Assembly (NCBI GenBank): GCA_017499595.2
Contig: CM038998.1
Coordinates: forward strand, 434,001-498,000
DNA length: 64,000 nt
Direction of reading: 5' to 3'
From: Psilocybe cubensis
Taxonomy: Eukaryota
In this document: piece after piece, positions 2,428 to 46,442 of the stretch
Layout: every line of letters begins with the position of its first letter
Numbering within the stretch: position 1 is the first letter of the stretch
Translations under genes and position numbers: made by a program
The notes under the pieces: generated by a model
Told to the model about the DNA's origin: nothing
Database searches by the model: none
Seen by the model: only the letters and a program-made list of their open reading frames with translations

Positions 2428-2459
2428 AACAAAAACAACAACAACAACAACAACAACAA
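2428..2459 (+). repeat. (AAC)n microsatellite
   Basis: aacaaaaacaacaaacaacaacaacaacaacaa read directly. Confidence 0.85.
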
Positions 2460-4078: not shown

Positions 4079-5235
4079 TATGGCTGCCCAAGTGGGGAAA
4101 TATTCCCCGTAAATATAATTACCTTATTTTTGAAAACTGCGTCAAGAATAAAAAAAAAATTGTGCGCGGAAACATTTGTTTGGTGCGCAGATTGCTTTCT
4201 GAGGCAGTTTGATGAATCCGTAAACACAATTGCCTGCGCGGAAACATATTTCAGACATAATTTACAAGCACAAGTGCATTATTTCTGCCCCAAATTATAT
4301 TTAACATGCAAGTTACATGCGTGTAAGTACATTTTGTACGTTGAACAAACCTTTTAATGCGCGGAAAACATTATTCGAAATGACCATTTTCTTGACCAAA
4401 GTGGCCAGCCGCGATTGCCGTGATTATGTAAATTGATCCTTTATGGCACTTCGGCACATGCTCATGGAGTTAGAGCTCCGACTGTCCTGTGTAATAGTCG
4501 TCTTGCTATTACCATTCTGTAGGGTAAGGTATAAACAAGTTTTGAGTTATTTATATCTAATAACACCTATCTGGTGCTTTTGAAAGCTCCCCATTGGTGG
4601 TGCAGCTTGTGCACCATCTCAGAGAAACTGCATATATTGTGGGAAAATCATCAGTCAGTACGTCTTTGCCTGTACCTTGCACGTCTGTGAAGTTAAGCAT
4701 GTCTATATAGGACTATAAAGTCATACCAAGGCAATATTTAATGAGTAAAAGTGTAATTACTGACCATAGTACTTCATAAATGGCTGTAAAAGAAAACGAC
4801 CCTTTGTATTTAAATTATAGGTTATGCCTTCAGTCGGAGCTCTAACTCCATGAGCATGTGCCGAAGTGCCATCATGGATCAATTTACATAATCACGGCAA
4901 TCGCGGCTGGCCGCCTTGGTCAAGAAATGGACATTTCGAATATTGTTTTCCGCGCATTGAAAGGTTTGTTTGGCGCACAAAATATAATTACGCGCATGTA
5001 ATTTACACGTTAAATATAATTTGAGGCAGAAATAATGCACTCGCACTTGCAAATTACGTCTGAAATATGTTTCCGCGCAGCCAATTGTGTTCACGGAATC
5101 ATCAAACTGCCCCAGAAAGCAATCTGCGCACCAAACAAATGTTTCCGCGCGCAAATTTTTTTTTAATCTTGACGCACTTTCCAAAAATAAGGTAATTATA
5201 TTTACGGGGAATATTTCCCCACTTGGGCAGCCATA
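4079..5235. mobile_element. TE1: non-autonomous TIR element, about 405-bp TIRs, TATGG...CCATA termini (IS3EU-like)
   Basis: 4079-4484 is the near-perfect reverse complement of 4831-5235; 346-bp AT-rich spacer; repeated GCGCGGAAA motifs in the arms; flanks CTGTAT and TCGACC do not match. Confidence 0.9.
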
Positions 5236-7396
5236 TCGACCGTCTACTACAACGTAAGCCTGTTAATATGACTTTGAGGAACAAAAATGATCTCAATCTG
5301 AGACGCCCAGGTCATTGTTGCGGATCCCAAAGCTCCTGTCATTAGCGTTTCCACGCGTCTGCACATTGTGGACGATGGCAATGCCCCACTAAAGTTGAGA
5401 ATTACTCTTGAGGTATTTTCTTTCTTTTTCGACGAGGGGATAAGATACTCACAATCTCCAGTCTTCAATTATGCCAGCAGGAACCTTTGTATCAATCTCT
5501 TCTTCAACTGGTACAATCAGTCTTCCAAAAACTGCTCTGGTGGCCGACCTCGGAGTCAGCGTCAGTCTGTCTCCCGGTTTTGACGACACTATCACTCTCA
5601 CTGTCTTCCGTGGGCCCAATGATCTCATTGACACGTATGCCTGGCTGTCTTTGCAAGCTGGTATTCTCACAACCCAGGACGTTAATCCTGGCGCCATACC
5701 AATCAGTAAATTCTTTTTGCTTGGCGCTCTGAACGTTGTCTTCAATGATGAGGCTACTACCAACTTTAAACACGCATGTCCTGCGGCTAACCAAAACAGG
5801 GAGCTTACCAATTTGATAAATGCACAAAACAAAGCCGAAACTGTTCAGGCAGATACCACCATTATTCAGAACACCAATGTGACGGGTTCTGCTACTGGAT
5901 GGTGGTTCCGTGATGCTATGGGCGATGGAAACGTTTTCCCCCGGACGTTCAACTTCAGTCATTCACCTGGTACGGATGCTCCCCATTTCTCTGAACTCCA
6001 GTTCTGACTCGTAGTTTATATAGACATTCAACCTGTTGGAACAGCGCCTAGATCTGACGCTCAACAGATACTAGGCGGAGCAAATGCAAACGTCGATTGG
6101 AGCGATGCGAATAATGTTAGTATTCAACAAGGCGCACCAAACTACATTTACCTCCGAGGAAATTGCACTTCGGGCAATAACTATTCCGTTCAAACGAGAC
6201 TTTTCTGCGTTCCCTCGGCTTTGGTTCTTTACCCGCCTACGTATTCGCAGTTCTCTGTCACCGATTTTGACAGCGACAATAACCCTGTTGTCGCTGTGCG
6301 AAACATCACTTCAACCTCGACCAACAGTTTCAACGTCGTGGACACAGCTTTCGATCTGCTAAACCCCCAACCCCCACCACCAGGAAGTGACCATTTCTGT
6401 CTCATTGCAGAGGCCCGCCATCCGACTCCCGAGAATCCGGACCCTCAGTGGCCACACGAAGTCACTGGGTCATATTCTTCAGGTGATTTATTTTCTACAT
6501 CGATCAAGTACATTTAAATTTAATTGAACTCGCCTTTTAGCTTCCGGATTCAGCACATGGATAGGCAGTACCCCCACCGTTACCTGGAGAAACGTGTCCT
6601 ACCAACCAGGCGGCGCCCAAATTATTTGCACTTCTATTGTTACCATTCCACCGGGCTTGTACTCGACCTCCACTGAATGGATTCTGGAGGCAGAAGCTCA
6701 GAATGCTCCTGTTGGTTCTGCCTGTACGTATTTATCTTATTCTGGCAGGTGACGAAGCGTTAAAACTATTTTATGGCGCAGGGAGGTTGACTGGAAATGG
6801 TCCCACAATCCCGGGTGTAGATATTGGATTCCAAGAAACAACAATTACGGCCCCCAACATGGTCCGTTACTCAACAATGTGGTTTTTATTGTTCTAATGC
6901 AAAAATCGTTTTAGGTTCAAGGTTGCCAATTCACTGGAGTTCCAGACCCATATACTTTCTCTGCCGTTCTTTAATGGTTCTCCAATGGAAAGCCTGTTGA
7001 AGATGGCATGACCTTCAAACTTAGTATATTTACGATGCAAACACCGAAGTAAGATTCATTGTTTGCAAGTGTATCTTCACGAACTTAAACTGCTTTCAAC
7101 ACATCAGTCTTTTCCCAACTGGGCCCAACTTTGCAATCACTTCCCGTCAACCATGCACCCTTCCACCAGAGGCAGATGATTGGAAATATATGGTTGGTTC
7201 TTACCATCCAGGAGTCGAGAACAAAGGCGACGGCAAGAAGACGCACGTAGGATACCTGGGTCATCGCTTTAAGTATCCTGGAGAAAACCCTTCGCCTCAT
7301 GCTCGCAAGAAACACAACGCAACCGATTTGAGCACGGATGACATCGAACCTGTTACTGTCTATTCCATTGGTTCGGATTGCTGGAACATTACTTAG
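5236..7396 (+). pseudogene. Paralog B, 5'-truncated at TE1 and carrying a nonsense codon
   Basis: Begins mid-exon at STVYYN|gtaagc directly after TE1; downstream exons collinear with C-E (MPAGT..., GWWFRD...SHSP, DHFCLIAE, YSIGSDCWNIT*); in-frame TAA at 6972-6974 where paralogs have CAA or GAA before TGG TTC. Confidence 0.85.
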
Positions 7397-9563
7397 GCGT
7401 CTCCCAAACATCTTTGAAGTTTCGCTGTCCGCTGTCGGGAGGTAGCCGTTTCCTTTGAATGCTTTCACAACGACTTATCATGAAAATCCTTTGTATACAT
7501 TTTTGGGCCTGCTGTTGCCTTAAGAAACACGCACCTTCTGTACCACGTTGTAAATGATGAATAAATTTACTTTGACGACCTTTTCAATGCGAACAAGGCA
7601 AAATTGTAATTCTTTCCCCGAGAAAATCCAGGAAACAAACATATTCGACTTCCGCCAGAAACACTTGTCTACACAGTAGGGATATCGATGGATACCCGTC
7701 AATATTGCGAGATACTATACCCAATGATGTCGACGCCGGGTGAATGCAGAAGGCGGGCCTGCTGTTACTCATCGTTGTGTATCGGGACCAGATACAAAGA
7801 GAGTGGGGGTAAGAGATGGTCACTCATGATTGCCCGTTAAGATGAATAGAAACAGTGGCCGACAATGGCTGCATGGAGTGAGCACCTAAGCATTCGATGT
7901 AGGCAGAAACATGTAAAAATGTCTACTAGTCGGCGGAGGCCCTGGAAAACACGATGAACTGAGGAATGTCTCCGTCCGTCATACTTCTAGCTGCATTGAC
8001 TGCAGAATTCAACGGGTTTCAGATGGGTCGAAATGTATTCACTCATTCTAGTGTTGACGGTAAAAACAAAATAATACATGAACGAGGAGAACGGATATGT
8101 GTGGAGATAAAAAATAATAATCGCAGAAAGATCCCAGCGAGTCCGTGCCAGGTAGATGTGAAAGAATTGCAAAAAGAGAAAAGAGATATCGGCTAAGTGC
8201 TTGTGTGGGGTGAGGCATATATGATTGTGAACGACGCAAAAATAGAAAAGAAAGAAAGGAAAAGAAGCAGTGACGTCTATAGGGAGAAAAAAGGAAGATA
8301 TTGCATGGATGGTTGGGACCTGGGAAGAGGGAGAATGCAAAGCGTTCTTGATGAGACGAGAGATATGACATGAAAGAGAAACAATGCAAGAAGAAATACG
8401 GGGACATCCCGGCTTCAGTGATAGTAAGATCGTGTGGGTAGGGGGTAGGCGAGCGAGCATGCATGTCCGTGAAAGGTAGGTAGAGGAGAACGAAGAGAGG
8501 ATGTGGGAAGGTAAAAATACAATGCGAGAATGTCGAGGGTGTAGAGTTACGGATGGACGATGGAGCAGATGGGAATCCAGCAGTAAGAATAACGATAACG
8601 ATATTGGTGTTTTGCAATAAACAAATGAGCACCTTGAGTCGAGGTGGGATGGCAAGGTGTAAAGTTCTGCGAGACTTGCTGCGTGTCTGTTCGAAATGGA
8701 CAGACATAGGGGACGTTCGGGGTACTTGTACATGTCCCGGGGATGATTGGCTCGTGATGGTGATAGGTAGGCTGATGCAGGGCCGAGGCTCGCAGCCGAT
8801 CGAGTCCAGGACGGGTGAAAAGCGTTGGTTGCATAGATGACTGCTCAATATTGCGGAGTAAAGTTGGCGATGCGATGGGGTCGATGGATGAGAAGGATAA
8901 TGGCGGTACAGGTTGAATGACCGAGCGACGCCGTCTTGAAGATAGAAATGGAAGAGGCGTAGACGACGAGAAGAATAAAAGGGGGAGGTAGATAAAAATA
9001 CAAACAAAAAGGTATAAATATGAACGAAAATGAAACGAAGTGGAAGAAAGTTGTGATGTAGAAAAAAATATGGGTCCATTCCAACCAAGATAAAAGAAAA
9101 AACGAAGTGCACCGCGGGTATGCGGTAGATACAAAAAAAAATCGCGAGAAATAGAAAGCCTAAAGTAGGCGGATGACGTCGAAGCGGATAAAAATAAAGC
9201 AGGTCCAAAATAGGGAATTTGCGAGGCGAACTACTGAACGGGGAATTTAACACTAGCCAGGGGTCGAAAACAAGAGCCGAATTGTGATAAGACGAAGCAC
9301 GACAGTGTGATCTGCATCATCATATGGCCACGAGGGGGAGGTGATGCGATAGGAACGACAGGATGCTTGCAGTCCTGTCTTGTCAGTTGTCAACCTTCCA
9401 CCTGGCCGGCGAAGTCTAAAACCGGGTGTCCAATTGAGAACTAAACCAAGTCCTGAAATGAATGATTAGGCCCATGTTGAATCAGGATATTAAGCAGCAA
9501 GTGAAAAAGGGCTTACTCGCTTGCCGGTTGCTTCCTTCCCCCCCTTCATCGAACCCCTTAGAC

Positions 9564-19065: not shown

Positions 19066-22000
19066 TTAAGTGAACTTGAAGTTCCAGTGGTCTCCGCCGA
19101 TGGAGTAAATGACTTCAGGCCCAGGCCCCGGAAGTCTGATGGATTTTGAGTTTTTGGCCTTGTCCGACCTCGCGTAAGGCCATTGGTTGGGCCCAATTTC
19201 CTTGTAACGACGGCCGAGGTATCCTTTGTTGCTCTTCTTACCTTCCCCTTTGTTTTCAACTCCCGGGTGGTAGATACCAACGGTGAATGGCCAGTTCACT
19301 GCGTTGTCAGGAAGAATCGAAGGACTCTTGGCATAGTCGTTGGTGTTAACGTTCGTCCTATGTCACTCTAACATGAGATTCATTTGACGGGACAAAGCAT
19401 GAAACATACACAGGAGGTGAAGTATTAAACAAAATGAAGGAGAAATTCATGCTAGCGTCAGGAACTGTGCCTTGCGAAAACCATTCAAGGACAATCGACA
19501 ATGTGTAACCGCTTGATGGAAGACCCGTGAAGTGGCATCCTTGAGTCTACAACATTTACTTTGTTATTATCTGTGCAATGTCATATTGAAGTAAAAAGCG
19601 AACCTCATTAGTGGAAGTAATTGCGGTCTGAGAGAAACCAATAGTGACCCCAGGAATGGAAGGACCGTTTCCCGTTAATGCCCCTGCACGAGTCAGTCTT
19701 TTGGAGATTTTCCTGTAAAGATTGATATCAAGATGAAGACATACAAGCAGAACCAACAGGAGCATTCTCAGCATCTACTTCCAGGGTCCAGACCGTAGCT
19801 GAAGGGAATACCACGGGAGGGATATCGAGTACAGCGGTGCAAATTAAATGAGCACCACCTGCCCGATATGTGATGTTCCTCCAGGAAAAATCTGGACTGT
19901 AAGCAATCCACTTCGCATACCCAGCGACTAAATGATGGACAATAAATTTCTTGAGATCTAATGAACGACTACGACGCACCCGAAGCAAATGTTCCTGTCT
20001 CTTCATGCGGCCAGTCTGGGTCCGGATTGGCGGCAGTAGGATTGCGCGACTCGGCAATAAGGCAGTAGTGGTCACTTCCCGACGGGGGAGGCAGTGGGTT
20101 CAGAAGGTCGAAAGCCGTCAAGATCACATTGAAGCTATTAGCAGAAGTCGATGTGATGGTGCGAGTAGCAACGAACGGATCTCCATCATCGTCGACGTCA
20201 GTGACGGGGAATTGCGCATAACTGGACGGGTAGAGAAGAAGGGCGTTCGGGACACAGAACAACCTGAATTCGGTGACATAGTTGCTTCCCAATGTACAGT
20301 TTCCTCGCAAATAGATGTAGTTAGGCGCGCCTTCGCTCACGGCGACAGCGTTCGCATCGCACCAATCTATGTTGGCATTGGATCCCCCAAGGATGGTCTG
20401 CGAGTCCGACCTCGGAACTGTACCAACAGGTTGAATATCTAGATGAATTCAAGAGTTAGAATTTAGATCGTTAAGGAAAGAGACCCGATGCATACCAGGA
20501 GAATGAGACAGAGTGTTCGGTCGGGGGAATAGGTTTATGTTGCCAATGTCATCACGGAACCACCATCCAGTTGCGATACCAGAAATAATGTCAGTGGTTC
20601 CAACGGTGCCTTCCTTAGCCACGACAGCCTGAGCTTCAGCTTTCTTCACTTTGAGATGTTCCTTAAGCTGATTGGCGGATGGACTCGAGAACCTCAAGTT
20701 GGTGGTAGCGTCATCGTGGAACACAACGTTGAGGGACCCAAGCAAAAAGACTTCGCTGATGGGGATGAGACCACGACGAGCAGTTTGAGGCACGACAATG
20801 CTTGCTTGAAGGGAGACCCAAGCGAACGTCTCAATCGTATCTTCTGCCGCGGGGAAGATGTTGAGTGTGATGATGTCGTCAAATCCGCCCGAGAGGCTGA
20901 CATGAACTCCAATATCATCTGTGAGAGCGACCTTGTCCAGATTGATCATCCCACTTGGGGAAGACATAGACACAGATGTTCCCGCTGGCATCGTCGAAGT
21001 CTATCGTGTGTTAATTTTCTTACCAAATACTAGTAAAGAAAGAACATACTGCAAGGGTTATCAAAAAGTTGAGAGGGGATGTACCATCGTCGATAACCCG
21101 AAGGCGTGTGGAGACACTGATGACTGGTGCGTTAGGGTCCGCGACAACGACCTAGATATTAATGGTGAGCAAGGTTTCATATGACAAGTTTCCAAGTAAA
21201 CTTACATTGTAAAACACAGTGGACGTGTCGTTGTTGATAAAGTCAACCATATCCTGCCAGTTGTTGGCATTAGCAGGTGGTGCTTGTAACGCGTCCCTGA
21301 GACGCGTCTTCGAGTTAACCACATCCGGAACTGGAGACTGCGTGGCGATCAGCGTGGTATTGAACCCGCCCATGTTTGGTGGCTTAAATGCGAACGGTGT
21401 GCCCAATGCAACCACTGATAAACACCTCCTTTAGTACAGTCATTGTACGTTAATGATGTTTAGCGTACCTGAGTTGGGAGTGGAAGTATCGATAACGAGG
21501 GGCCCTGGGCCAGTGGGCTTGACCTGGTTCCAAATTTGAGGCCACAAGATGAGCTCGCTGGGGACCGCACGTAGAACAACGGCGGTCTTGGATCCTGCGG
21601 TAACGCTAGAGGTCGTCTGTCCTCTGAAAAAGACATTGTTGGTCTCGCTTGGTTGAAGCGGGAGGCTCATGAACAGGTCGTATTCACTGATCAACACCGC
21701 CGGATCGACTTTGTTGCCAAAGTGTATGGAAAGCCGGAAGAGCGAGGTGCCCAGACACAAACCAAACATCGTCCGGCAGAGATGCCGAGTGATCGCTAGG
21801 CAACTCACAATCCCGCTATGGCTGAACGACTTCCGACACCCTGCACCGAGTGCACTATACAAATATCTATATTCCATCGCATACTGTAGGTGTTACCTGC
21901 CCTGGTAGGTAATCTGGATACACATAATTATTACATGTAATCTAGCACACAATAGCAAACACAATTTTACTGGCATGGCAGGCAATTGCTGCGAAGCCGC

Positions 22001-23143
22001 CGTTTGAAGTTATTTTTCGCACTATTATTTACTAGTTATGGCCTGTAAGAAAGGGTTTTTGCATCAGTTACAAGTTTTTCTTGCCCCCGCTGTGACGTAA
22101 GTAACAATATTGACACCGAGAGTAACAGCGGTTCCGTAGCCTTCATTTATATTGTAGAAATAAGGTGTTCAAAAGAAATAGACAAAGAAAGAGATAACAG
22201 GGTTAATTGAGAAATACATGAAGGTAGAGTATAAGTCAGTTTCAAGAAATAGGAAAATAGAGTAAAGAAAATGAGCTAAAGGACTGGGTGTGTCGGGTGG
22301 ATGGAACAAAGGTGAAGTCCACAGAAAAGTAAATTAAAGATAAGATAAAAGGAAGATAATCGGCGGTGTGGGAAACAGTCAGTTTTCTACAGGCTCACAT
22401 CAAGGCTCACATCTTCAGCTCAAGGTCTCAACGACGTCGAGCTTAGACCACTCACCGTGCTCTATCACCTGCCCTAGATCTCCTCTTTCTCCTCTCCTCC
22501 GTCATGTCCATTTCGTCCGTTGCCCATGAACAACCGTCCCGCCGTGCTGAGCGCATACCAAAGTTTGGTTTGGGTCTGATGGGTGAGTATAAGCACTCTG
22601 GATCTTTTTACAAGCAGTTTACCTGTCCTAGTTCACTTCCTCTCATGTCATCAACTTGAATGTGCTAGCCAAGGCCCAAACACCGCGGTCATTTTAGTCA
22701 TGCAAAATATTGAATTTATTGCCTTTCTTACAGGCCATAACTAAATAATAGATGGCGAAAAATAACGTACCTAAAGTATGTGACGGAATATAGATATTTG
22801 TATAGTGCACTCGGTGCAGGGTGTCGGAAGTCGTTCAGCCATAGCGGGATTGTGAGTTGCCTAACGATCACTCGGCATCTCTGCCGGACGATGTTTGGTT
22901 TGTGGCTGGGCACCTCGCTCTTCCGGCTTTCCATAAAAGTGGGGGATGATATCCGGCGTCTACTGCGGTGTGAGTATTCATTTTTATCCGTTGAGGCATT
23001 AAACATTTACGAAGGCTGTCGCCTTGGTGGACACGACATCGTCAGTCAAGACTGCACCAATGTCAGATTTTCACGTCTGTGAGACGTCGCAATGCGATAC
23101 ACTCACAGTTGCGAGAAATGAGGTTGTTGGTCGATTTAGACAT
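19066..23143 (-). pseudogene. Paralog C, full length but interrupted in exon 3 by TE2
   Basis: ATG at 23143 (MSKSTNNLISRN), exons collinear with paralog D, stop at 19066 (DHWNFKFT*); 1211-bp insertion at ...PDIIPHF|HFGNKVD. Confidence 0.85.
21725..22935. mobile_element. TE2: non-autonomous TIR element, about 166-bp TIRs, TATGG...CCATA termini, 6-bp TSD AAAGTG (IS3EU-like)
   Basis: TIRs 21725-21890 and 22770-22935; AAAGTG at 21719-21724 and 22936-22941; empty site ttgccaaagtgggggatg visible in paralog D near 27760. Confidence 0.95.
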
Positions 23144-24675
23144 CTTTGAGATTTTTTTGCTTCTTAGCAATGGATCGCTGGGGTTCTCTGATGTTGAACT
23201 GGGGAATAACTGTCAGTTGAGTTTTCTTTTATACCCCAAGCCTCCTGTGAATACGAAAGAAAAGTCAGACTCAAATCAACCCCTTCCTTGACTTGCCACA
23301 ACTGTAACGGAAGATGTCAAGCAAATGCCCTCGACTTATTCGGATTCCTTTGTCGTTGAGGCCTGGAAATGGTAGGGATGATGGACAGAAAGCTTCAAAG
23401 ACAGCTCATCCAGACAGTATGTCCACCTTCTAAGCGGTCCAAATAAACAATACGAAGGCTATCGTGCACTCGATTGATTTTTTGTACATCGCATCTCCAC
23501 AACGCCGGCCCCAAACAAAGGGAATAAACTTGGTTTATACAACCTTGAAAGGATTGATGAATAATTCCGCTTATAGAGCGTCCAGGGAATGTGCAATTTG
23601 CCAGTTGACTACTTGTGTCCCATTTGGGAAGGATTGGATTGAATAAACATGAAATGCCTCAACAATTCGCAGAAAGCCTGTATCTGGATCATTATATGCT
23701 GAAATAGAATCGAACAACAAAACTCACCGAGCACAACCCGCGTTTTGAGCTTAGTAAAACCGTCATCGTATAATGGATAAAAAGTAAAAAAAGGAAGTGA
23801 AGGCAATTGAACAACTTGCACAAGAGCTTGGGCTTTATCTTTAAATTTGTAGCCAAAATAGACTTGACGTTTAAATGAAAGCCCGAATTTTTTGGACTTG
23901 TTGGCCGCTGCAAGTACGAGGGTGTTTACCTCAAGGTGATCAAAGCATCAACCATTTGCAAAGTCAGCTGCTTTACAGACGTCTCTGGTGGCTTCTTGAA
24001 AGGGGTAGTTTTTGCGGGGCTTATTAGAAAGCACAAATTAAGGTAACACCGTCATGTTGCCTAAAGTTGGAATGTAGGGGACATCTAATTGAAGATACAT
24101 TAGACTCCCATTGAAGAACGACAGACATCAATGTGTTTTCTGTTAGTATACATAAGCAGAGCGCACCTTTTGTGTGCGCCGACGAAAGCCTCCGAATTTT
24201 TCATGCAAATCGAAAGGAAGTGGGTCATAGGTTTCCCCCACCGTGGTTAGGTACACATCGTGTGTTGAAGCCGCTGGGATGATTGAGACTCGAGAGTGAT
24301 GACTAGGCAGCTTGTCGAAAAATGTTGTATGGCTTCTGCAGTAAAGAAACGCATTTTCCGAATGACCAGTGATTATTTTACAATACCAAACTGGATGTCA
24401 TGATCATTAGAAGTGGGGAGTTGAAGAACATGGACTAGCCGGGAGGAACAGCAGGACGACGCAGGAGTCAGACAACTCCTCACCGGCCTCACCGCAGTTG
24501 CCCGACATTGACGGTGGACAGACCAATGATGGCGCCACGCGAGGCCGCCCTGTAACAGCACGTGATGCCTTCGAGACCCCTAAACAGGGATTTGAGGCTT
24601 GAAGTGTACTGTGACGGTTGCCGATATAATTCGTTGTGATACACTCAAAAAGTCGGTAGGTTTCTATAAACTCGC

Positions 24676-24757
24676 AATAGTGATTCTATGTCAGAATATC
24701 GCGTCAAAATATGTGTGAAATAGTGATTCTACGTCGAAATATGGCGCCGAAGTATGT
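24676..24757 (+). repeat. Imperfect 43-bp tandem repeat, 2 copies
   Basis: aatagtgattcta(t/c)gtc..aatat.gcg.c.aa.tatgt at 24676 and 24719. Confidence 0.65.
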
Positions 24758-25124
24758 ACTGTGACCTTTAGCCTTCTGCAGTCGATGTTTTTGGATTTGT
24801 GGTTTATCACGAACGGCCCATATTGTGTTCAGATGCGTCCCGATTCATTTGGATTTTTGTCTGGAAATGGTTCACGGTGTAGAGTGCCCTAGGGTTTTCC
24901 GGTCATCTAAATTTGACCTTTGATTATTCAAATGACAGGCACTGGAGTCAGAATCATGATTTACATATACACTTGTGATCACATTGTCCAATACTACTAC
25001 ATCTCTGTCGTAGTTAAACATAGATTTTTTTGTTGCTTTTATATTTGTGAAATAGTACCGTATCCCAGTCTCAAGATTTCTTTACAGTGTCTACCAATTT
25101 CGATTTCCAGCTTGTGCCGAGCAA

Positions 25125-27970
25125 TTAGGAGAACCTGAAGTTCCAGTGGTCTCCGCCGACGGAGTAGACAATACTAGGCTGGATTGACTTCAAGTTGTCA
25201 TCCTTGTCCACCCGCGCGTATGGCCATTGGTTGGACCCAATCTCCTTGTAGCGACGACCGAGGTATCCTTCGTTGCTCTTCTTACCTTCCCCTTTGTTCT
25301 CAACTCCCGGGTGGTAGATACCGACGGTGAATGGCCAGTTGACTGCGTTATCTGGAAGAGTTGCAGGTTGCTTGACGAAATCGCTGGCATTCACGTTTGC
25401 CCTATGTCACGCTAACGTGAGATTCATTTCATGGGAGAAGGCATGAAACATACGCAGGGGGTGTAGTAGTGAACAAAAGGAAGGAGAAGTTCATGCCAGC
25501 CCCGGGAGCGTGGCCCTCTGAGAACCATTGGAGAACAATCGAGAATGTGTAGCCGCTCGAGGGAAGACCCGTGAAGTGGCATCCTTGACTCTACAACAAT
25601 TGCTTTGTTATTATATGTGCAATATCTTATCGAAGTATGAAGCGAACCTCATTAGTGGCAGTAATTGTTGTCTGAGCGAAACCGATCGAGACACCGGGAA
25701 TGGAAGGACCGCTGCCAGTTAAAGCCCCTACGTGGATTGAGTTTCGTAATGCTTTTCGACAAAGATAAATGACATAGACGTACAAGCAGAACCAACAGGG
25801 GCATTCTCGGCATCTACTTCCAGAGTCCACTCAGCAGACGATGGATATACACCGGCTGGAATCTCGCAAATGGCAGTGCAGATCATTTGAGCACCACCAG
25901 CCCGGTATGTGATGTTCCTCCAGCACACATCGGGGCTGCCAGCAATCCATGTATCAAACCCAGCGGCTAAGAGATAAACTATGAGTTTGCAGCAATCTAA
26001 TGAGCGACCACTAGTCACCTGAAGCAAATGCGCCGGTGTCTTCATGCGGCCAGTCTGGGTCCGGGTTGGCGGCAGTAGGATTACGCGACTCGGCGATGAG
26101 GCAGTAGTGGTCACTTCCCGACGGCGGAGGCAGTGGGTTCAGAAGGTCGAAAGCCGTCAAGATCACATTGAAGCTATTAGCAGAGGTCGATGTGATGGTG
26201 CGAGTAGCAACGAACGGGTCTCCATCATCGTCGAAATCAGTGACCGAGAATTGCGAATAGTTGGACGGATAGAGAAGAAGGGCGTTCGGGACACAGAACA
26301 ACCTGAATTCGGTGACATAGTTGCTTCCCAATGTACAGTTTCCTCGCAAATAGATGTAGTTAGGCGCGCCTTCGCTCACGGCGACAGCGTTCGCATCGCA
26401 CCAATCTATGTTGGCATTGGATCCCCCAAGGATGGTTTGCGAGTCCGACCTCGGAACTGTACCAACAGGTTGAATATCTAGATGAATTCATGAGTTAGAA
26501 TTTAAATTGTTAAGTAAAGAGACCCGATACGATACATACCAGGAGAATGAGACAGAGTGGTCGTTCGGGGGAACAGGTTTATGTTGCCAATGTCATCACG
26601 GAACCACCATCCAGTTGCGGCACCAGTGATAATGTCAGTGGTTCCAACGGTGCCTTCCTTAGCCACGACAGCCTGAGCTTCAGCTTTCTTCACTTTGAGA
26701 TGTTCTTTAAGCTGATTGGCGGATGGACTCGAGAACCTCAAGTTGGTGGTAGCGTCATCGTGGAACACAACGTTGAGGGACCCAAGCAAAAAGACTTCGC
26801 TGATGGGGATGAGACCACGACGAGCAGTTTGAGGCACGACAATGCTTGCTTGAAGGGAGACCCAAGCGAAAGTCTCAATCGTATCTTCTGCCGCGGGGAA
26901 GATGTTGAGTGTGATGATGTCGTCAAATCCGCCCGAGAGGCTGACATGAACTCCAATATCATCCGTGAGAGGGACCTTGTCCAGATTGATCATCCCACTT
27001 GGGGAGGACATAGACACAGATGTTCCCGCTGGCATCGTCGAAGTCTATCGTGTGTTAATTTTCTTACCAAATACTAGTAAAGAAAGAACATACTGCAAGG
27101 GTTATCAAAAAGTTGAGAGGGGATGTGCCATCGTCGATAACCCGAAGGCGTGTAGAGACACTGATCACAGGTGCGTTAGGGTCCGCGACAACGACCTAGA
27201 TATTGTTGGTGAGCAGGGTTTCATATGACAAGTTTCCAAATAAACTTACATTGTAAAACACAGTGGACGTGTCGTTGTTGATAAAGTCAACCATATCCTG
27301 CCAGTTGCTGGCATCAGCAGGAGGTGCTTGCAACGCGTCCCTGAAACGCGTCTTCGAGTTAACCACAGCCGGAACTGGAGACTGCGTGGCGATCAGCGTG
27401 GTGTTGAACCCGCCCATGTTTGGTGGCTTAAATGCGAAAGGCGTTCCCAATGCAACCACTGATAGACACCTCCTTCAATATAGTCATTGTAAGTTATTGA
27501 TGTTTAACGTACCTGAGTTGGGAGTGGAAGTATCGATAACAAGGGGCCCTGGGCCAGTGGGCTTGACCTGGTTCCAAACTTGAGGCCACAAGATGAGCTC
27601 GCTGGGAACCGCACGGAGAACAACGGCAGTCTTGGATCCCGCGGTAACGCTGGAGGTCGTCTGTCCTCTGAAAAAGACATTGTTGATCTCGCTTGGTTGA
27701 AGCGGGAGGCTCATGAACAGGTCGTATTCACTGATCAACACCGCCGGATCGACTTTGTTGCCAAAGTGGGGGATGATATCCGGCGTCTATTGGGGTGTGA
27801 GTGATTATTGCTATCCGTTGAGGCATTAAACACTTACGAAGGCTGTCGCCTTGGTGGACACGACATCGTCAGTCAAGACTGCACCAATGTCAGATTTTCA
27901 TGTCTGTGAGACGTCGCAATGCGATACACTCACAGTTGCGAAAAATGAGGTTGTTGGTCGATTTAGACAT
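25125..27970 (-). CDS. Paralog D, apparently intact member of the uncharacterised family (about 11 exons, roughly 750 aa, no signal peptide)
   Basis: ATG 27970; exons splice to MSKSTNNLIFRNFLTDDVVSTKATAFTPDIIPHFGNKVD...ELILWPQVW...GWWFRDDIGN...SHSPDIQPVG...NYIYLRG...LLLYP...DHYCLIAE...WRNITY...YSVGGDHWNFRFS*; canonical GT-AG introns; TATA-like element upstream. Confidence 0.88.
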
Positions 27971-30231
27971 CTTTGAGATTTGTTTGCTTGTTAGCAATGG
28001 ATCGCTGGGGTTCTTGGATGTTGAACTGAGGAATAACTGTGAGTTGGTTTTTCTTTTATACCCCAAAGCCTCCTGTGAATACGAAAGAAAAGTCAGACTC
28101 AAATCAACCCCTTACCTTACTTGCCACAAGCGTAACGGAAGACGTCAAGCAAATGCATTCAACTTATTCGGATTCCTTTGTCGTTGAAGCCCATTTATGA
28201 CTGATACAATGGATGGAGAGCTTCAAAGATAGGTCACCCATACCTTGTTTACCGTCCAAATAAAACATCCGAAGGCTCTAGTACTTTCTGTTGATTTATT
28301 CGCAGTTCGCATCTCGAAAGCACCGGCCCCAAATAGATCGAATAAACTTAGTTCATGCAGCCTTGAAAGAATGGATGAATAGTCGCGCTAATAGGGCGTT
28401 CTGTAATGTGTCGTTTGCCAGTGGACTAGTTGTGTCCGTTTTCGGAAGGAATGACAACAAGCATGCAAAAGTCTCGACATTTAGCATTTAGCAGAAAGCC
28501 TTGTATTTGGATTATTATATGCTAGAATACGACAAGTCGAGAAATGAAACTCACTGAAAACAACCCCACTCTTGAGCCTAGTTAAACGGTCATCATGTGT
28601 AGACAGCGGGGAAAATGGAAGTGAAAGGCAATCGAACAGCTTGAGCCGGACCTAAGCGTTATCGCGCCTACCTCTATCGAACTATAGAGCATGAAATAGA
28701 TAATGTATATACCACCTATCATCACACTGATATTCGGTCATGAAAGGATGGATGAACAGTCCCCTAGCCGCAGAACATGTTTGATTTTGCCAGTAAACCA
28801 GTTGGGTCTGCTTTCGGAACAAGTCACACAAAAACGTCCGACACAAAAAAAGAACGCCAGGAGTCTAGTGTTATATTACATGCCAGAAATCGAGCACATG
28901 CGTACTCACCAAGTATATCGCCCACATCTGCTGCCAAGCGCAAGCCCCGTCTCGTACGAATGGACACTGAAGAAATTCGGAGCGAATTGGCATTCGATGA
29001 ACTAGTGCAAAGTCTCGTGCTTGACCTTCAAATTGGGATCCAAGAATAGACAGTGTAGTCGAGAGAAGGCCCAAATGTTCTCAACTTGCGCGGGCGTCAG
29101 GCTGCTTATTTCGACGACATATAGATGTACGAGGATCAAATGATTATGCATTTGAAAAGCCATCTGCTTCGTGATAGGGGTCATCTCTGAGAAGAAAGTT
29201 CCCAACTCCAGGTTTCGACCATTGACGTGACAAAACAAATTGACATTCAAATGATTAATTGGAATGGTTCATCAGACACGTTCACCCTTCTCCTTCAAAG
29301 CCAGTTCGACTCCTGAAGCCATATACCATTTGATGAGGAAAGATGGCGACAGAGAATATCGACCCTGAAAACCGAGTTATGCTCGACGTTTTCCAGAATG
29401 AAGTATCGTCGAGTGCTCAGAACGTGTCTTTTGAATAGGACAATAGAATTGGAGCTATACGGGCAGAGGAGGGGTGCAAATGCATTATTATACATGAACG
29501 ATAAAACAACATGGAGATCTAAGAGTATTATGGTAAGCAAAGAGTCAAGGACAGGGTGTAATGCAAAAAGGCAATATCAGAGACTTGAATGGTTCCCGAA
29601 GGAATAAAACCCATCGTGCGAACACGTCGTGGTTATGTTTGCAGTAATAGGTTGCATCTTGCGAACAGAAAAGATGCATAGACTCACCGATAGCCTTTCC
29701 AATTGGAATTGTAGTGAACATGGATAACCTATATACCTAAAACTGGAGAGAATGGTATTAGTAACAATTCACTGGCAGACAGGGGTGGAAAAAGGTGGAA
29801 AAAAGTGGTCGAAAAGTGTCAGGATAGATATACGTGTTCTTCTCATAACCCTTGGGCTTCGAAGTGAGCTGAGTTTGTACGAATAGATTCTCATCATATG
29901 TGGAAATCGAAAGTGAAAGGATACGAAGATGTAGAAATACTCACCACACTGTAATCCAAAGTCATTGGCACCGATGTAGAAGACCATGACGGGAATAACG
30001 AACAACATAGCCACACCCGAAGCCTCAACAAGTGTGAGACACCACGTGATTAACCTGCCCTAAAGTCAGCCACCGGAATTCGACTATACAGAACCATCGT
30101 GAAGATTCCCACCGTCCTCAGGGTACCAGAAGGTCAGTCGACGACACCCAATATCATAATTCACGGTGAGCAGGCCCTATATTACCTTCTCTTCGTCGGC
30201 GACCCGTGTACTGAAGACGGTTCTTTCCTGA

Positions 30232-30797
<566 letters not shown>

Positions 30798-31764
30798 TCT
30801 ACTCGCTCGGAGTCCTATTGGTGTTGGGTTGTCGGGGACGTCGATTCACAGATGTTTGGCCGCCATGTACCACGAGATTATGCTAAAATTCGATATGCCA
30901 ATCTGTGTACTTCGACTTCGACTGTGCGCCATGATATATTTTTCATACCATTCCAAGGTTATGATGTCCATGTTGAGTTGCTCTTTATCAAAAACTTCTA
31001 TTAAGTATGTTGGCAAGATCCTTCCACGAACCTCAGCCGCCAGCACTCGCCGCCGTGAAAAAAGTTGTTACGCACAAGGAACGACCGCGTTTATGGTTCC
31101 TTTCTGGTTTTTGTCGTTGGGTCGACTTTTACCCTGTTTCTACATGCAAAATGGATGACCGCGTTCGTCTCACTGGATCGTAAATTGTATTCAGAACCAG
31201 CTTCGGGATGGGCAATGTGATAGTTGCTGACAATATCCTTGATATCATTTGGTAGTTGGTCGTGAGTGCGATGCAAGGCTGACATCCTACGTCTTTCATA
31301 CCCACATAGAAAGTACTGATAGAGCTATATCACCTGTCCTTGCTATAAGCAGATTAGTAGCCCGGAGAGGTGGTGAAATCATATGCAGCAAGTAGTTAAC
31401 TTCAAAAACGGCGGAGAGGTGCGTTTTGCCATGTGTTCCGCTGTTCTGCTGGTCTTATCGCCATTCAGTCTAGTTTTCTAGGGAAGACTTCTTTATTACT
31501 TTGTGATGTTCTTTAACTTCCATAGTGCGTTTCTAACAATTTCGAACTGTGGAAAATTCTGCTCGTTGGATGGGTCATGGGTATCAAAAATTGATTGTCA
31601 ATATGGATTTTTTCAAAGTTACAGAAGAGCATGTAAGTCAACATCACTGATCAGGTGGGTGCGTAACGACTGTGCGAAAAAGAAAGTGTTTGTCTGCAAT
31701 ATCAAAAGTATTTCGAATTCAGGTTTTCCAACTGTCGCAAACTTGCATTGCGTTGCCTACACCA

Positions 31765-34700
31765 TCAGACGAGATTCCAGTGATCCCCACCAACTGAATA
31801 GACAGGGACAGGACCAATTGCATCATATGCATCAATATCACCGTCGCCGGAAGCATAAGGCCAGGGGTTGGGGCCAATGTCCTTGAACACTTTACCAAGG
31901 TACGCTTTGGAATGCTTCTTGCCGTCTTGAAGGTGTTGAACTCCTGGATGATGAATTCCGACGGTGAAAGGCCAGTTAGCCGCTTCTTTTGGGAGAGTCG
32001 CGGCGGCTCTGAATTGACCTGTGCCCAGCGCCTTGGGCCTGATTTATGTGCATGGTCAGTGGCATCTGCGTTTTAATGCAAGAGACACCTTACCCGGCAG
32101 GAGGCGAGGTAGTGTGTAAGGAAAACGAGAACTTCATCCCTGCTCCCGGAGCGTAGCCTTGTGCGAACCATTGAAGCACAACTGAAAACTCATAGCCACT
32201 ACTTGGTAAACCTGTGAAGTGGCATCCTTGAACCTGTGTATAGAATAAACTCGGCATTCCGTCAACGTTGTTTAGAACAACCTACCATGTTTGAAGCTGT
32301 GACAGTTGTCTGAGCAAAGCCGATGGTGAGTCCGGGGATGGCTGGGCCAGAACCGACCAGTTTCCCTGAGCAAGAAGATCATCATAATTAAAAACATGCA
32401 CAACGTAACAGCATCTCAATATAATGACTTACATGCAGATCCAACCGGAACGTTATATCCATCGACTTGCAATGTCCACTCGGCAGAGGAGGTGTACACA
32501 TTATAAGGAATTGCGACATTGCACGAACAGAGTAATTCAGCACCGCCCGTTTTGAATCCCATGTTCCTCTCGCTGACTGTAGGGGTACTTCCTACCCAGT
32601 TGTTGAAACCGGCGCCTATGAAATCGTTAGAAAATGCTCCATGCCATCTTGCCGCTTGAGAAACGGACTTACCCGAACTAAACGCGCCAGTGTTTTCATG
32701 CGGCCAGTCAGGGTCTGGGCACTCGGCAGATGGATGACGGGTTTCTGCGATGATGCAATAATGATCGTTTTGCGGGGGCAAGGCCTTAGGGTCTAAGATA
32801 TTGAAGGGGTTGTTCAATACGTTGAAACTGTTGGCCGAGGGAGATGTGATGGTGCGTATGGCCACATACGGTTCTCCCTTGTCATCAAAGTCTTGGACAG
32901 ACCATTGTGCGTACTTCGTGGGATAAAGCAGCAAGTTATTGGGTACACAGAACATCCTTGCTTCGACAGCATAACCGTTTCCCTGGGTGCAGCTTCCACG
33001 GATGTATGTATAGTTCGGCTCGCCTTGGTTGATCGTGACATTATGCGAAGCACTGTAATCGATGCTTGCATTAGAGCCGCCCAGAATTGACGCTGGGGTC
33101 GACAATGGCGCGTTCCCAACAGGTTGGGTATCTATAATATATAAAGGTCAGAGGTGTATTTTATCGAGAAAATTCTGAACCGTACCTGGTGAAATATAAA
33201 GGGATTCGGTACGAGGGAAATGGTTGGAGTCGTTCAATGCATCACGGAACCACCACCCAGTAGCTGAGAAGGTCGAGGCAAAAAGGCTTGCCGCAGCATC
33301 CCCGCTCATTACAGATTGTGCGACATCTTTAGTCGCTTGAACATACTTCCTGAGAGCATTGGCAGCAGGACTTGCAAATCTGAGGTTTGTCGTTGCGTCA
33401 TCGTGGAAGACAATGTTTTGGGCTCCCAGCAAATGAACCTCCGTGATGGGTATTCCTTGTTGCGATGCTTGTGGGACTACAATACTTGCCTGGAGTGAGA
33501 TCCATGCGAACGTTTCAACAACCGCATCGGACGGAAGGTGAACGGTGAGTGTAATGGTTTCATCAAAACCAGGATCCAAGGCCACGTGAACGCCGACGTC
33601 GGTATTGTCCGAAATAAGGGTTGGAGCCATGTTTATTGCCCCAGCTGGGGAGGACAAGGACACACGAGTGCCATCTGGCATCAGAGAATTCTGAAAAGCG
33701 GAAAAAGTAAGCCGTATGCCTCTTTTATAGGGATAACAAATAAAACCTCAATCATAATATTGAAATCGAGAGGACTTTGACCATCGTCAATGATACGAAG
33801 GCGAGTGGACATTGTAATGACGGGAGCTTTTGGATCGGCCACCACCACCTAAGCGTTGTCTTTTCAGAATCACCCCTTTAAAAAGTCTCCTTTGGTCTGC
33901 ACTTACATTGTAATATACCGTGGAGGTATCATTGTTAATGAAATCCAGCAATTCTTTCCAGTTCTTCACATCGGCCGGTGGAGCGGGCAAAGCATCTCGA
34001 AGACGAATTGGGCCACCATCGGTATAATCATTCCAGACCAGTATGGCTGTCCGTTTGCACATTTAATGCCATGTATAAGTTTCCTTCTCCTTACATATAA
34101 GTCATAATTCTACACGGTTCCGAAGACATACTTCGGTGTCCCGGTCATAGACAGATGGATTCCCAGCATGGAAGAAACCATCCCAGTCATTGAACTTACA
34201 TGGCCTTCAGTTTTATTGGGAGGTACGAGCATAGAGGTAGGTCACCCATATATAAAAAGGCCAGTATCCTTCTTTCTAACTCCTTCCGCATATATATAAA
34301 CTTTCTTCCGCAGATAGAGAGTCGTCGAGATGACTATCACACGTGCCGTCCTTGCCGGAGGCGCGTGGGAATTCGGTTTGTATCCCGCTTTGCAGTGAAT
34401 TGATACTCGTTGAGAAGCTAGGATGGATATTAGATTTCGTTCAAAGTCTTACCAGCATGTCGTGATTACTACAGGCGTTTGTATAGCAGGTCATGAATAG
34501 AAATATTGCACTTTCTCACTTATAACCTCAACTGCACGCGTATTTAAACCTAGCACACCGGCTAGGCTTCAGTAATGGTGAATGGAAGCTCTTGGCTCCA
34601 ACCAGATAGACGTAATACGTCTATAAGAAGCATATACGCAAGCTTTTATAGCACGTATGAAGACTGTCTTTGCTCATTCAGCGTGTGTTGACTTAGAAAT

Positions 34701-35744
34701 CGTAATGTGCTGAGATGTGTCTTGTCGATGGTCGACATTTGCCGACTTCTCACGATGTCCCGGCTGACACGGCATAGACAAATGCCGAAAAATGCCTCTA
34801 TCTCTTTGGGACGGTGAAATGTAAAATCAATAATACACGGAGCCTGTAGATATGTGTAAGGGTACAAAACATTTATGAAGGGGCGTGGGTTTCCTATGTA
34901 AGGGATTGTAACTTATATATGTGGGCAGCAAAACTATATGTATGGTACTCAATATTTCATCTGAGGGCACAACATTTGAATATGTGGATTTGGGATTTTC
35001 ATGTGCGGTAACTTGCTGTCTGTCTGCGGATATCATAAGATTTACGTACAGGACCATTTACTCCCTACACTTATATGTAAGGGGAAAGAAACTTATATAT
35101 TGGCATTAAATGTGCAAACGGACAGCCATAGACCAGACCTTGAGTAGCAATAAAAACATTGTGAAACCCGCCCATTGAACTGGGGCTAATGATAAAAGGC
35201 GTGTTGAGAGCCATGACTTGGAATATATATTATAAGCACCATTTCTACCTCCAAAGACGTTGGAACTAATATGAAAACAGTACCTTTGTTGGGGCTCAAA
35301 CTTGGGAACATCAAGGGTCCTGGTCCTAAAGGTTTTTTATCGTTCCAAACTTGAGGCCATAGAATCAGTTCGCTAGGGACTGTACGCAAGGTCACAGCTG
35401 CCCTATCGCCAGGAACGATATTGGAGGTTGTGGTTGCTCGAATATAGATCAGGTTGATCTCATTTGGTTGGAGGGGGAGACTTATGAATTGATTGTATTC
35501 TTTAATGAGGGTCGATGCGTCCAACTCGTTTCCGAAGTGACAAACGATATCTGGCGTCTTCAATGCGATGAGTAGGATGAATGTGGATAATGGAGACGAA
35601 TGCATACAAAAGCGAGGGCCTTAGTCGCAGATATTCCGCTTGTTAAATCTAATAGTGATTTAGCGACGGCCTATACGATGCGTGCAGCGGAGTAAACACA
35701 CAATTTCGAAAGATGAGGTCGTTTCTTTGGTTGGAAGCAGACAT
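31765..35744 (-). pseudogene. Paralog E, full length but interrupted in exon 4 by TE3
   Basis: ATG 35744 (MSASNQRNDLIFRN); TPDIVCHFGN, ELILWPQVW, GWWFRDALND, NYTYIRG, DHYCIIAE, YSVGGDHWNLV* (stop 31765); 1089-bp insertion at IATQGLV|LVWNDY. Confidence 0.85.
34042..35130. mobile_element. TE3: non-autonomous TIR element, about 60-bp TIRs, TATGG...CCATA termini, 6-bp TSD GACCAG (IS3EU-like)
   Basis: tatggctgtccgtttgcacatttaatgcca at 34042 and its reverse complement ending at 35130; GACCAG at 34036-34041 and 35131-35136. Confidence 0.95.
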
Positions 35745-46406: not shown

Positions 46407-46442
46407 TAGCTGGCACTCAGGAGTCACGCTAACACGGAACAG

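Follow-up and report, generated by a model that had tools for sequence, protein, structure and literature searches.

Three short DNA transposons, here called TE1, TE2 and TE3, lie in the 64-kb window analysed (the whole stretch of 64,000 nucleotides, from Psilocybe cubensis), where they sit in or directly against coding sequence of three separate paralogs from one gene family; this raises the question of what brought them there and what has let them stay. The explanation that we prefer, and regard as probable with real room for doubt, is that they are ordinary non-autonomous insertions of the IS3EU superfamily, independent of one another, that inactivate redundant clustered paralogs; family-specific targeting, selected loss and reversible excision are not supported by any evidence here. 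IS3EU is a minor, little-studied superfamily, and its elements are moved by a transposase of the DDD/E type that is related to the one of bacterial IS3.

Anatomy and classification of the elements

The original prediction was of three TATGG...CCATA elements with inverted ends of about 405, 166 and 60 nt. All three are real and have the predicted lengths, with both terminal motifs present in each and inverted ends of 406, 167 and 62 nt:

4079..5235, no strand assigned: TE1, putative non-autonomous IS3EU-type element, 1157 bp; inverted ends 4079-4484 and 4831-5235 (406 nt, 91.9%); termini TATGGCTGCCC..GGGCAGCCATA; flanks CTGTAT and TCGACC, no target-site duplication
21725..22935, no strand assigned: TE2, putative non-autonomous IS3EU-type element, 1211 bp; inverted ends 21725-21891 and 22769-22935 (167 nt, 97.0%); a second, inner inverted repeat at 22009-22054 and 22722-22766; exact target-site duplication AAAGTG at 21719-21724 and 22936-22941
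34042..35130, no strand assigned: TE3, putative non-autonomous IS3EU-type element, 1089 bp; inverted ends 34042-34102 and 35069-35130 (62 nt, 93.5%); exact target-site duplication GACCAG at 34036-34041 and 35131-35136

The element-end sequences include TATGGAAAG and TATGGCTG.CC, the latter common to the ends of TE1 and TE3 as had been proposed. Internally the three are dissimilar, again in agreement with the first description, as sensitive blastn found no similarity among them (longest common stretch 16 nt, E >= 0.49). No ORF of more than 76 aa is present in any of them, and they are therefore taken to be transposase-less families; a Pfam search of 20 long ORFs likewise found no transposase in the window. 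The 6-bp duplications that had been predicted hold for TE2 and TE3 and fail for TE1, the flanks of which differ. That of TE2 is corroborated by a single AAAGTG in the intact paralog D, the unfilled counterpart of the TE2 site, and that of TE3 by sequencing reads that skip 1095 bases, being the 1089 of the element plus 6. An age estimate from the divergence of the inverted repeats was discarded, as the ends of a non-autonomous element are not necessarily identical at insertion. The 8-mer TTTGTTGC, seen by eye in the left flanks of both TE1 and TE2, is taken as chance because its distances from the element ends differ and because tblastn gave no family homology to the left of TE1.

The assignment to IS3EU that had been suggested from the termini stands, since termini, duplication length and inverted-repeat length all match those in the available sections of published accounts of fungal IS3EU (PMC12730594, PMC10045372); judged on these features of the DNA, a classification of TE1-TE3 as three different non-autonomous families within the superfamily is supported. 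Complete IS3EU families are described with TA..TA termini and duplications usually of 6 bp (PMC10045372), and those of rust fungi (Pucciniales) with 6-bp duplications, inverted ends of more than 30 bp and TAYGG..CCRTA termini (PMC12730594). Such termini are found in all three elements, as are inverted repeats longer than 30 bp (62-406 nt, 92-97%), and the 6-bp duplication in two of the three. The rust elements, as the same sections present them, are autonomous and several kb in length, carrying a transposase and an alpha-kinase gene and often TET/JBP (PMC12730594), whereas TE1-TE3 are of ~1.1-1.2 kb, are without an ORF above 76 aa and reside in an agaric.

A second comparison is with Styx, an IS3EU-related element of Zymoseptoria tritici, for which the available part of the report gives 6-bp duplications, retention of donor copies, insertion nearer genes, no sequence preference and a link to rearrangements (PMC10853768). 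It resembles TE1-TE3 in its duplications, in recent activity with presence or absence between strains and in proximity to genes without a motif; it is unlike them in being 7.9 kb, autonomous and near genes, as here three short derivatives are found inside coding exons of one family (PMC10853768). Amongst alternative assignments, hAT6 also has duplications of ~6 bp, with a hAT-type transposase or termini, and is known in that account from an animal lineage (PMC12730594); the TAYGG..CCRTA ends point to IS3EU over hAT6. Kyakuja (7 bp, CA..TG), Zisupton/Dileera (8 bp) and EnSpm/Plavaka (2-3 bp, CA..) were rejected, as they misfit a 6-bp duplication with TA ends.

Target-specific DNA transposons do exist, Dada in tRNA and snRNA genes and Pokey in rDNA, and these insert into one conserved sequence at the same nucleotide. 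TE1-TE3 are like them in being found repeatedly in one kind of gene, but they lack the defining feature of the same sequence and position at each insertion, as duplications or flanks differ in all three and the positions are codons 33-34, ~145 and 181/182. As sites and sequences both differ, sequence-specific targeting is excluded. Literature searches brought up no paper on IS3EU in Psilocybe, and TE1-TE3 would be the first non-autonomous IS3EU derivatives described there.

The host family and its interrupted members

The host family has 11 exons and a protein of ~767 aa, and the following members were mapped in the window:

1..379, plus strand: paralog A, 3' end only; residues 660-767 of JR316_0000115 are matched at 100% identity; visible part without an element
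5236..7407, plus strand: paralog B, 5'-truncated pseudogene in which exon 4 is reduced to its last 18 nt and exons 5-11 remain
19066..23143, minus strand: paralog C, 11 exons, exon 3 split by TE2 at codons H33-F34
25125..27970, minus strand: paralog D, intact, 11 exons, letter-for-letter JR316_0000120; single AAAGTG at 27763-27768
31768..35723, minus strand: paralog E, exon 4 split by TE3, 80 nt in, at ~codon 145 (D numbering)

Seven named proteins belong to the family (JR316_0000065, 071, 100, 112, 115, 120 and 121), all on one 4,675,579-bp contig, and B and C match no database protein; there are at least nine paralogs, the seven named ones together with B and C. D, A and four further named paralogs are annotated at full length, and the model of JR316_0000065 is short, at 555 aa. 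No Pfam domain was found in five exon translations of paralog D, nor over the family-homologous stretch in 10 relatives, two of which have Pfam matches only outside that stretch (beta-propeller repeats and a papain-family protease). An Atlas search with the family returned unnamed clusters only, and a metagenome scan for family loci gave one relative in 67 pattern matches, on a 1222-bp contig that is too short to add information. A first structure model was poor (pLDDT 47.6), and a second, built with 94 sequences, was confident (pLDDT 88.7, pTM 0.84). Foldseek matches to the latter were to generic multi-beta-sandwich proteins (TM 0.07-0.13) and were set aside as uninformative. We would describe the family as lineage-restricted, with predicted beta-sandwich domains, and tandemly clustered.

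It had been claimed that each element interrupts an N-terminal exon of a different paralog at a different position, which is borne out for C and E and not for B. When TE2 and one copy of its duplication are removed from paralog C the result is an uninterrupted frame of 772 codons with all AG/GT splice sites retained. The insertion would cut the promoter and first two exons off from the remainder of the gene; a spliced RNA contig spans exons 6, 7 and 11, so the downstream exons are still transcribed and spliced, and the inverted end of TE2 offers in-frame ATGs open into exon 3, for which two reasons C may not be a complete null. Paralog E treated in the same way has an open frame through exons 2-11, with exon 1 poorly mapped. 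The public annotation of E, JR316_0000121 (568 aa), begins only downstream of TE3 and represents a transposon-truncated gene model. Neither C nor E has a lesion besides the element.

Paralog B retains its splice sites for exons 5-10 and has one in-frame stop, in exon 10. Its family homology sets in precisely at 5236, against the right end of TE1, 18 nt from the end of exon 4 and at codon 181/182 of ~767. A tblastn search with 14 family proteins found no family sequence with E below 1 anywhere in 380-5320, a region that includes all of the left flank of TE1, and the exon next to TE1 does not run on at its other side. TE1 may mark the place at which a later deletion or rearrangement took away the 5' part of B, and decay of this paralog would have begun after that loss. 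Rearrangements at the ends of Styx, as reported in the available text, are comparable to the position of TE1 at the truncation point (PMC10853768).

An empty site in another strain and transcripts of the interrupted genes

X13, a raw-read DNA run of another strain, contains 20 reads with 19 different starts, the shorter side reaching 74 letters at most, that join 34034 to 35130, a precise TE3-free junction where the local depth is ~28-36. In X13 this TE3-free form is the principal allele, or the only one, and with read numbers close to the full local depth it has the appearance of an allele into which TE3 was never inserted. Contigs from X8 and X9 over the same empty site were left uncounted, because their shorter sides, of 23 and 30 letters, fall below the bar of 31. 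TE3 at least is so young that some strains have it and others lack it. Among the 15 joints listed of 42 there was no empty TE2 site. X13 furthermore contains 4 + 2 reads that join the right end of TE3 to its left end with spacers of 15 or 17 letters, as either a circle or two copies side by side might give.

For transcripts we turned to X10, which is taken to be spliced RNA from the GT..AG joints of its L40e gene, the record itself having no RNA label. One of its joints concerns TE3:

35065..35138, minus strand: region missing from a single spliced-RNA contig and bounded by GT..AG when read along the gene; weak, with 30 letters on the shorter side

The donor lies in exon 4, 8 nt short of TE3 on its upstream side, the acceptor lies 66 nt inside the element, and the joined frame stops after 7 codons. 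In word depth of assembled contigs, which is a poor measure of expression, contigs with introns 1-3 of E spliced reach 3852.7, the ubiquitin/L40e gene next to E reaches 1390.9 and the contig splicing exon 4 into TE3 reaches 1877.7; 34309-34875 is without a contig, and by the same poor measure the contig over exons 7-11 reaches 38.3, ~100 times lower. It appears that TE3 traps the transcript of E by cryptic splicing into the element, which would be followed by early termination.

Introners are transposon-derived introns, and they resemble TE1-TE3 in occurring within coding exons, in being short and non-autonomous and in having duplications and inverted ends. If TE1-TE3 were spliced from mRNA in this manner the genes would still work, and the transcription and correct splicing of downstream exons in C fits such a reading. 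The element boundaries are however without GT..AG, no spliced-out form is present among the X10 contig joints listed, whether skipping TE2 or TE3 at or near their ends, the one TE3 joint splices into the element and meets a stop, and the contig over the downstream exons of E has the far lower word depth given above; we find intron-like behaviour hardly credible.

The original prediction also raised reversible switches, in which the elements excise during development and the genes are restored. The precise TE3-free junction and the reads joining the right end of TE3 to its left end are what such a switch might leave behind, but the empty junction is at nearly full local depth, as expected of an allele and not of a rare somatic product, and the two spacers differ from each other and from the expected 6 bp. 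In X10, where the transcript of E appears to be spliced into TE3, the joints listed include none that skips the element. Bacterial IS3 elements transpose by copy-out-paste-in, which also counts against excision. Styx is reported, in the sections available, to retain its donor copies (PMC10853768). The sole empty site found is the TE3-free allele of another strain, and the developmental switch is abandoned here as very improbable.

Selected inactivation is a third possibility, in which loss of paralogs is advantageous, through a costly and abundant product or through cultivation, and knock-outs rise whatever their mutational cause. Three broken copies in a family of at least nine, the lack of any second lesion in C and E, and a promoter of E that looks very active (by contig depth only) are in keeping with this. 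Against it, other types of knock-out are absent from C and E and the TE3-free allele predominates in X13 or is the only one there; we rate this reading as quite unlikely.

Concentration of the elements in one family

It had been stated that no such element occurs elsewhere in the window, in intergenic DNA or in other genes, and this was confirmed when the entire 64 kb was scanned for TATGG..CCATA pairs: with an inverted end of 11 nt required at <=2 mismatches, and a duplication of 6 bp at <=1 mismatch, TE2 and TE3 alone were returned. Without the duplication requirement the remaining zero-mismatch pairs all lay within the repeats of TE2 itself, and no further copy was found by inverted ends in the 64 kb. 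Family coding sequence accounts for 9093 of 60531 non-TE bases, so that three uniform hits have p = 0.0034, a post hoc value for this window. As three of three elements in family coding sequence exceeds the uniform expectation, tolerance together with a general 5' bias may be insufficient as an explanation, and the tolerated intergenic DNA of the window, in which the inverted-end scan found none of these elements, also counts against tolerance.

These observations favour integration directed at the family, in which the 5' portions of the member genes would attract the IS3EU transposase, or a host factor that it uses, through very high transcription, a chromatin mark or a DNA structure, and the family would be a true hot spot. 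All three elements lie within codons 33-182 of family members, the in-window chance is low, the 5' exons of E exceed ubiquitin/L40e in RNA contig depth, poor measure though it is, and the element families look small, with depths in X13 of ~111-117 for TE2 and ~208 for TE3 over flanks of ~31-36 (ratios ~3.5 and ~6). Against this, the target sites AAAGTG, GACCAG and CTGTAT/TCGACC have no sequence or position in common, and six of the named paralogs, D and A among them, have full-length annotations. Moreover 269, 584 and 245 reads of X13 run from the ends of TE2 and TE3 into mixed sequence (agreement 0.39-0.44), and from the excess depth and mixed flanks it follows that copies of TE2 and TE3 exist at several other places. 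The 30-nt tip of TE3 has a rough depth 7 to 52 times that of its flank, which suggests that related elements number in the dozens; a metagenome scan for this 30-nt end gave 0 matches. We judge directed integration unlikely. Equally doubtful is its wider form, that one clustered, lineage-restricted family with very high transcription is preferred, in its 5' coding exons, by short elements that IS3EU mobilises. This would give rise to a reservoir of segregating on/off alleles, such as the presence or absence of TE3 in E between strains, and to 5'-truncated or chimeric transcripts, as the in-frame ATGs at the end of TE2 lead into exon 3 of C; were preferential integration true, the family would be a hot spot in which transposition, and not point mutation, sets expression copy by copy.

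The preferred reading, ordinary insertion into redundant paralogs, would account for the locus as follows. The insertions would be independent, as they have no common internal sequence and occupy three positions in three paralogs, each in the first quarter of the coding sequence. They would act as loss-of-function alleles and persist because at least nine paralogs render each copy dispensable. Their concentration in 5' exons might reflect an IS3EU preference for open, transcribed, gene-proximal DNA, taken by analogy from Styx, together with purifying selection that would clear such hits from the housekeeping genes between the paralogs. The core genes there are element-free, namely ubiquitin/L40e (30.2-31.2 kb), a SNF1-type kinase, a CBM21 protein and a DUF726 protein.

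IS3EU has on this evidence been active recently enough in an agaric to leave a segregating insertion. If the concentration in the family holds genome-wide, a mushroom would become available in which an integration bias tied to region or to expression can readily be studied; if it does not, the locus is a classic illustration of how redundant paralogs take up transposon hits. At ~9 genes of 2.3 kb the family makes up about 0.05% of the sequence in contig sets that total 40-47 million letters, and the excess within it over uniform insertion probably extends to the whole genome.

Structure and classification of the three elements

An inverted-repeat search together with self-blastn of the window delimits the three short transposons that had been predicted from the sequence:

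4079-5235, TE1, 1157 bp, inverted ends of 406 nt at 91.9%
21725-22935, TE2, 1211 bp, inverted ends of 167 nt at 97.0%
34042-35130, TE3, 1089 bp, inverted ends of 62 nt at 93.5%

As read from the terminal sequences all three start with TATGG and end with CCATA, and TE1 and TE3 have TATGGCTG.CC in common, in keeping with the original prediction. Their interiors are, as was also claimed, unlike one another by blastn (longest match 16 nt, E >= 0.49) and an ORF of more than 76 aa is absent from all of them; they are three different non-autonomous families. The predicted 6-bp duplications are present at TE2, flanked on both sides by AAAGTG, and at TE3, flanked by GACCAG, but not at TE1, where the left flank is CTGTAT and the right flank TCGACC. 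No further such element had been noticed, and indeed, when the full 64 kb is scanned for TATGG..CCATA pairs that have both matching 11-nt ends and a 6-bp duplication, TE2 and TE3 alone come up; when the duplication criterion is dropped the remaining perfect pairs all fall within TE2's own repeats.

The suggestion that such elements belong to the IS3EU superfamily agrees with published descriptions, as the complete families treated in PMC10045372 have TA..TA termini without exception and, as a rule, 6-bp duplications, and those of seven rust fungi are described in section 3.1.3 of PMC12730594 with 6-bp duplications, inverted ends of more than 30 bp and TAYGG..CCRTA termini. Zisupton/Dileera (8-bp duplications), Kyakuja (7 bp, with CA..TG ends) and EnSpm/Plavaka (2-3 bp) were considered as well, and none fits by the lengths and ends that PMC12730594 gives. 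Given this match, and the misfit of the other superfamilies, assignment of TE1-TE3 to IS3EU is well supported by structure.

A second TATGGCTGAAC motif, similar to the outer termini of TE1 and TE3, lies 92 nt inside each end of TE2, at 21817 and 22843, and may be either a subterminal repeat bound by the transposase or what is left of an inner element. By eye, the interiors of TE2 (22380-22660) and TE3 (34240-34440) both resemble a short ATG-started exon with a TATA-type promoter ahead of it and the GT of an intron start behind it, and may be captured 5' gene fragments.

Host genes, insertion sites and transcripts

Minus-strand stop-to-stop frames at 25.1-28.0 kb match a 767-aa hypothetical protein of Psilocybe cubensis, JR316_0000120, exact protein-to-genome mapping of which gives 11 exons for paralog D. 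The copies of this family in the window are:

Paralog A, the final 108 codons of JR316_0000115
Paralog B, plus strand, no database protein matched, adjoining TE1
Paralog C, minus strand, no database protein matched, host of TE2
Paralog D, JR316_0000120, the intact reference copy
Paralog E, JR316_0000121, with an annotation that begins only at a methionine beyond TE3, its guest, on the downstream side

Further named members (JR316_0000065, 071, 100 and 112) lie on the same 4.68-Mb contig, and the chromosome arm has at least nine family copies. No Pfam domain was found in the family, and a profile search gave 396 relatives at E <= 0.001, which include agaric and bolete proteins as well as shorter ones (~350 aa, one of them actinomycete) that correspond to the C-terminal half. 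An alignment of 94 sequences led to a confident model (pLDDT 88.7) with predicted stacked beta-sandwich domains, for which Foldseek returned generic matches only (TM 0.07-0.13).

The exons of D were projected onto the other copies after deletion of each element and one copy of its duplication. C without TE2 is an uninterrupted frame of 772 codons with AG/GT kept at every splice site; TE2 sits 24 nt into exon 3, its duplication encoding codons H33-F34, and at the matching place D has a single AAAGTG, the two C/D alignments overlapping by exactly 6 bp (27763-27768). E without TE3 has an open frame from exon 2 onwards through to its stop, with TE3 80 nt into exon 4, at about codon 145. Interruption of 5' exons, as predicted, is therefore borne out for TE2 and TE3, whereas the left flank of TE1 is not family sequence. 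The first base of B with family homology is 5236, immediately beyond TE1; from there B retains the final 18 nt of exon 4, encoding S-T-V-Y-Y-N, then a normal intron and exons 5-11, of which exon 10 has one in-frame stop. A tblastn search with 14 family proteins (word size 2, E below 1) gave no likeness to the first 181 codons anywhere from 380 to 5320, a stretch that takes in the left flank of TE1. TE1 would originally have lain within exon 4 of B or of its parent, and a later deletion or recombination with its break point at TE1's left end may have taken the 5' part of B along with the left duplication. Such a truncated flank has a known basis in Styx, the studied IS3EU relative from Zymoseptoria tritici, which the account in PMC10853768 ties to rearrangements.

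Among the public runs X10 alone shows GT..AG joints, in the ubiquitin/L40e gene and in E introns 1-3, and is therefore taken as spliced RNA; the E joints (35216/35284, 35557/35608 and 35648/35702) agree with the exon projection. The 5' exons of E (35139-35723, exons 1-4') have a contig word depth of 3852.7, against 1390.9 for ubiquitin/ribosomal L40e (30187-30667), which if real would place the E promoter among the strongest in the sample. In one contig of depth 1877.7, the shorter side of which has 30 letters, 35065-35138 is skipped between GT..AG ends on the gene strand; this splice joins a donor 8 nt ahead of TE3 to an acceptor 66 nt into the element, where a stop follows after 7 codons. 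Contig coverage is absent at 34309-34875, a contig across exons 7-11 has a depth of 38.3, and no joint that skips TE3 is among those listed for X10. We read the E transcript as trapped and terminating early in TE3, with the proviso that contigs measure levels poorly; that the elements are spliced out in the manner of introns is, given these RNA joints, scarcely credible.

For C, a 2390-nt X10 contig (depth 37) spans exons 6, 7 and 11 with zero mismatches, and no X10 contig covers exons 1-2 or the upstream region. At the TE2 end (21725-21892, minus strand) a stop-to-stop frame holding two ATG codons runs from 56 codons inside the inverted end into exon 3, in phase, so that C could yield a 5'-altered product with a chimeric N-terminus should transcription begin within TE2.

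C (18920-23818) and D (24985-28643) are 95-100% identical in exons 1-7 and just 77-84% in exons 8-11, which suggests recent gene conversion across the 5' two thirds; of the two, only C has TE2. The A and B units form a tandem duplication with a spacing of ~7.0-7.1 kb (1134-1442 vs 8211-8497; 149-292 vs 7157-7300) and includes ~1.1 kb of low-complexity DNA downstream, which overlaps the Ser/Pro-rich CBM21 gene at its 3' end.

The TE3 site and further copies in public reads

Public reads were compared with 19000-36000 of the window at a likeness of at least 92. X13, a run of raw DNA reads, has a joint between 34034 and 35130 that is carried by 20 reads with 19 start points, the shorter side reaching up to 74 letters. 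The joint skips 1095 bases, TE3 plus 6, with 7 ambiguous letters, and corresponds exactly to a TE3-free site that has a single GACCAG. As local depth is ~28-36, we infer that the X13 strain has the empty allele as its major or sole one. One of the three elements still segregates between strains. Single contigs with the same joint in runs X8 and X9 were left uncounted, having 23 and 30 letters on one side, under the tool's bar. No joint skipping TE2 is among the 15 listed of 42 joints.

It had been proposed that the insertions are reversible switches, and this now seems very improbable, as the empty TE3 site is allele-like. Bacterial IS3 moves by copy-out-paste-in, which points in the same direction. 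Styx, too, is described in PMC10853768 as keeping its donor copies.

Depth in X13 is ~111-117 over TE2 and ~208 over TE3, against ~31-36 alongside. Reads leave the elements (269 at the left end of TE2, 584 and 245 at the right end of TE3) into sequence with a consensus agreement of only 0.39-0.44, so that the families of TE2 and TE3 have several members, in different locations. Two more groups, of 383 and 445 X13 reads, share just the outer 32-38 nt of TE3, whose 30-nt tip has a rough depth relative to its flank of 7x in reads and 36-52x in contigs, contig depths not being copy numbers.

Four and two X13 reads join the right end of TE3 to its left end (35130/34038) with 15 or 17 letters between, and could stem from two adjacent head-to-tail copies elsewhere or from circular forms. 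Raised depth is also seen in part of the host family: the start of D exon 6 (26974-27080, ~100 nt) has ~3x the neighbouring depth in the DNA runs X13, X8 and X9. At 26974, 211 X13 reads pass from this piece into the same foreign sequence (agreement 1.0), and nearly all X13 reads have T at 27009. Some multi-copy unit elsewhere in the genome seems to include a fragment of the family.

Concentration of insertions in one gene family

That three of three elements lie in 5' exons of one family is suggestive. Family coding sequence makes up 9093 of the 60531 non-element bases of the window (15%), for which three uniform hits have p = 0.0034, post hoc, and none of the three lies beyond the first 24% of the coding length. 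On the scale of the genome, ~9 genes of 2.3 kb each come to about 0.05% of the contig sets (40-47 million letters), and by a uniform model even one hit in the family would be expected only with something like a thousand IS3EU-type copies, again post hoc. True family-directed integration and selected loss of the paralogs are both considered unlikely.

The window is no transposon dump: the paralogs are interspersed with genes for L40e, an SNF1-type kinase, a CBM21 protein and a DUF726 protein. Selection would remove insertions from these, whilst redundant paralogs would tolerate them. Styx, according to PMC10853768, lies nearer to genes without a sequence motif, which gives a bias towards the 5' parts of genes a known basis. 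For these reasons tolerance combined with a general open-chromatin bias is the explanation we favour as the probable one. TE1-TE3 are new, non-autonomous IS3EU families with a role that is already known in kind, the insertional knock-out of redundant paralogs.

The original prediction also placed the other transposon types between genes, which is so for a CACGG..CCGTG element at 45840-46406 (567 bp, inverted ends of 61 nt at 98%, TAG duplication), EnSpm/CACTA-like by the criteria set out in PMC12730594. Beyond it a 60-nt tandem duplication (46430-46550) precedes a large nested inverted-repeat structure at 46551-49024, with arms of ~330 nt at 82% and further inner arms.
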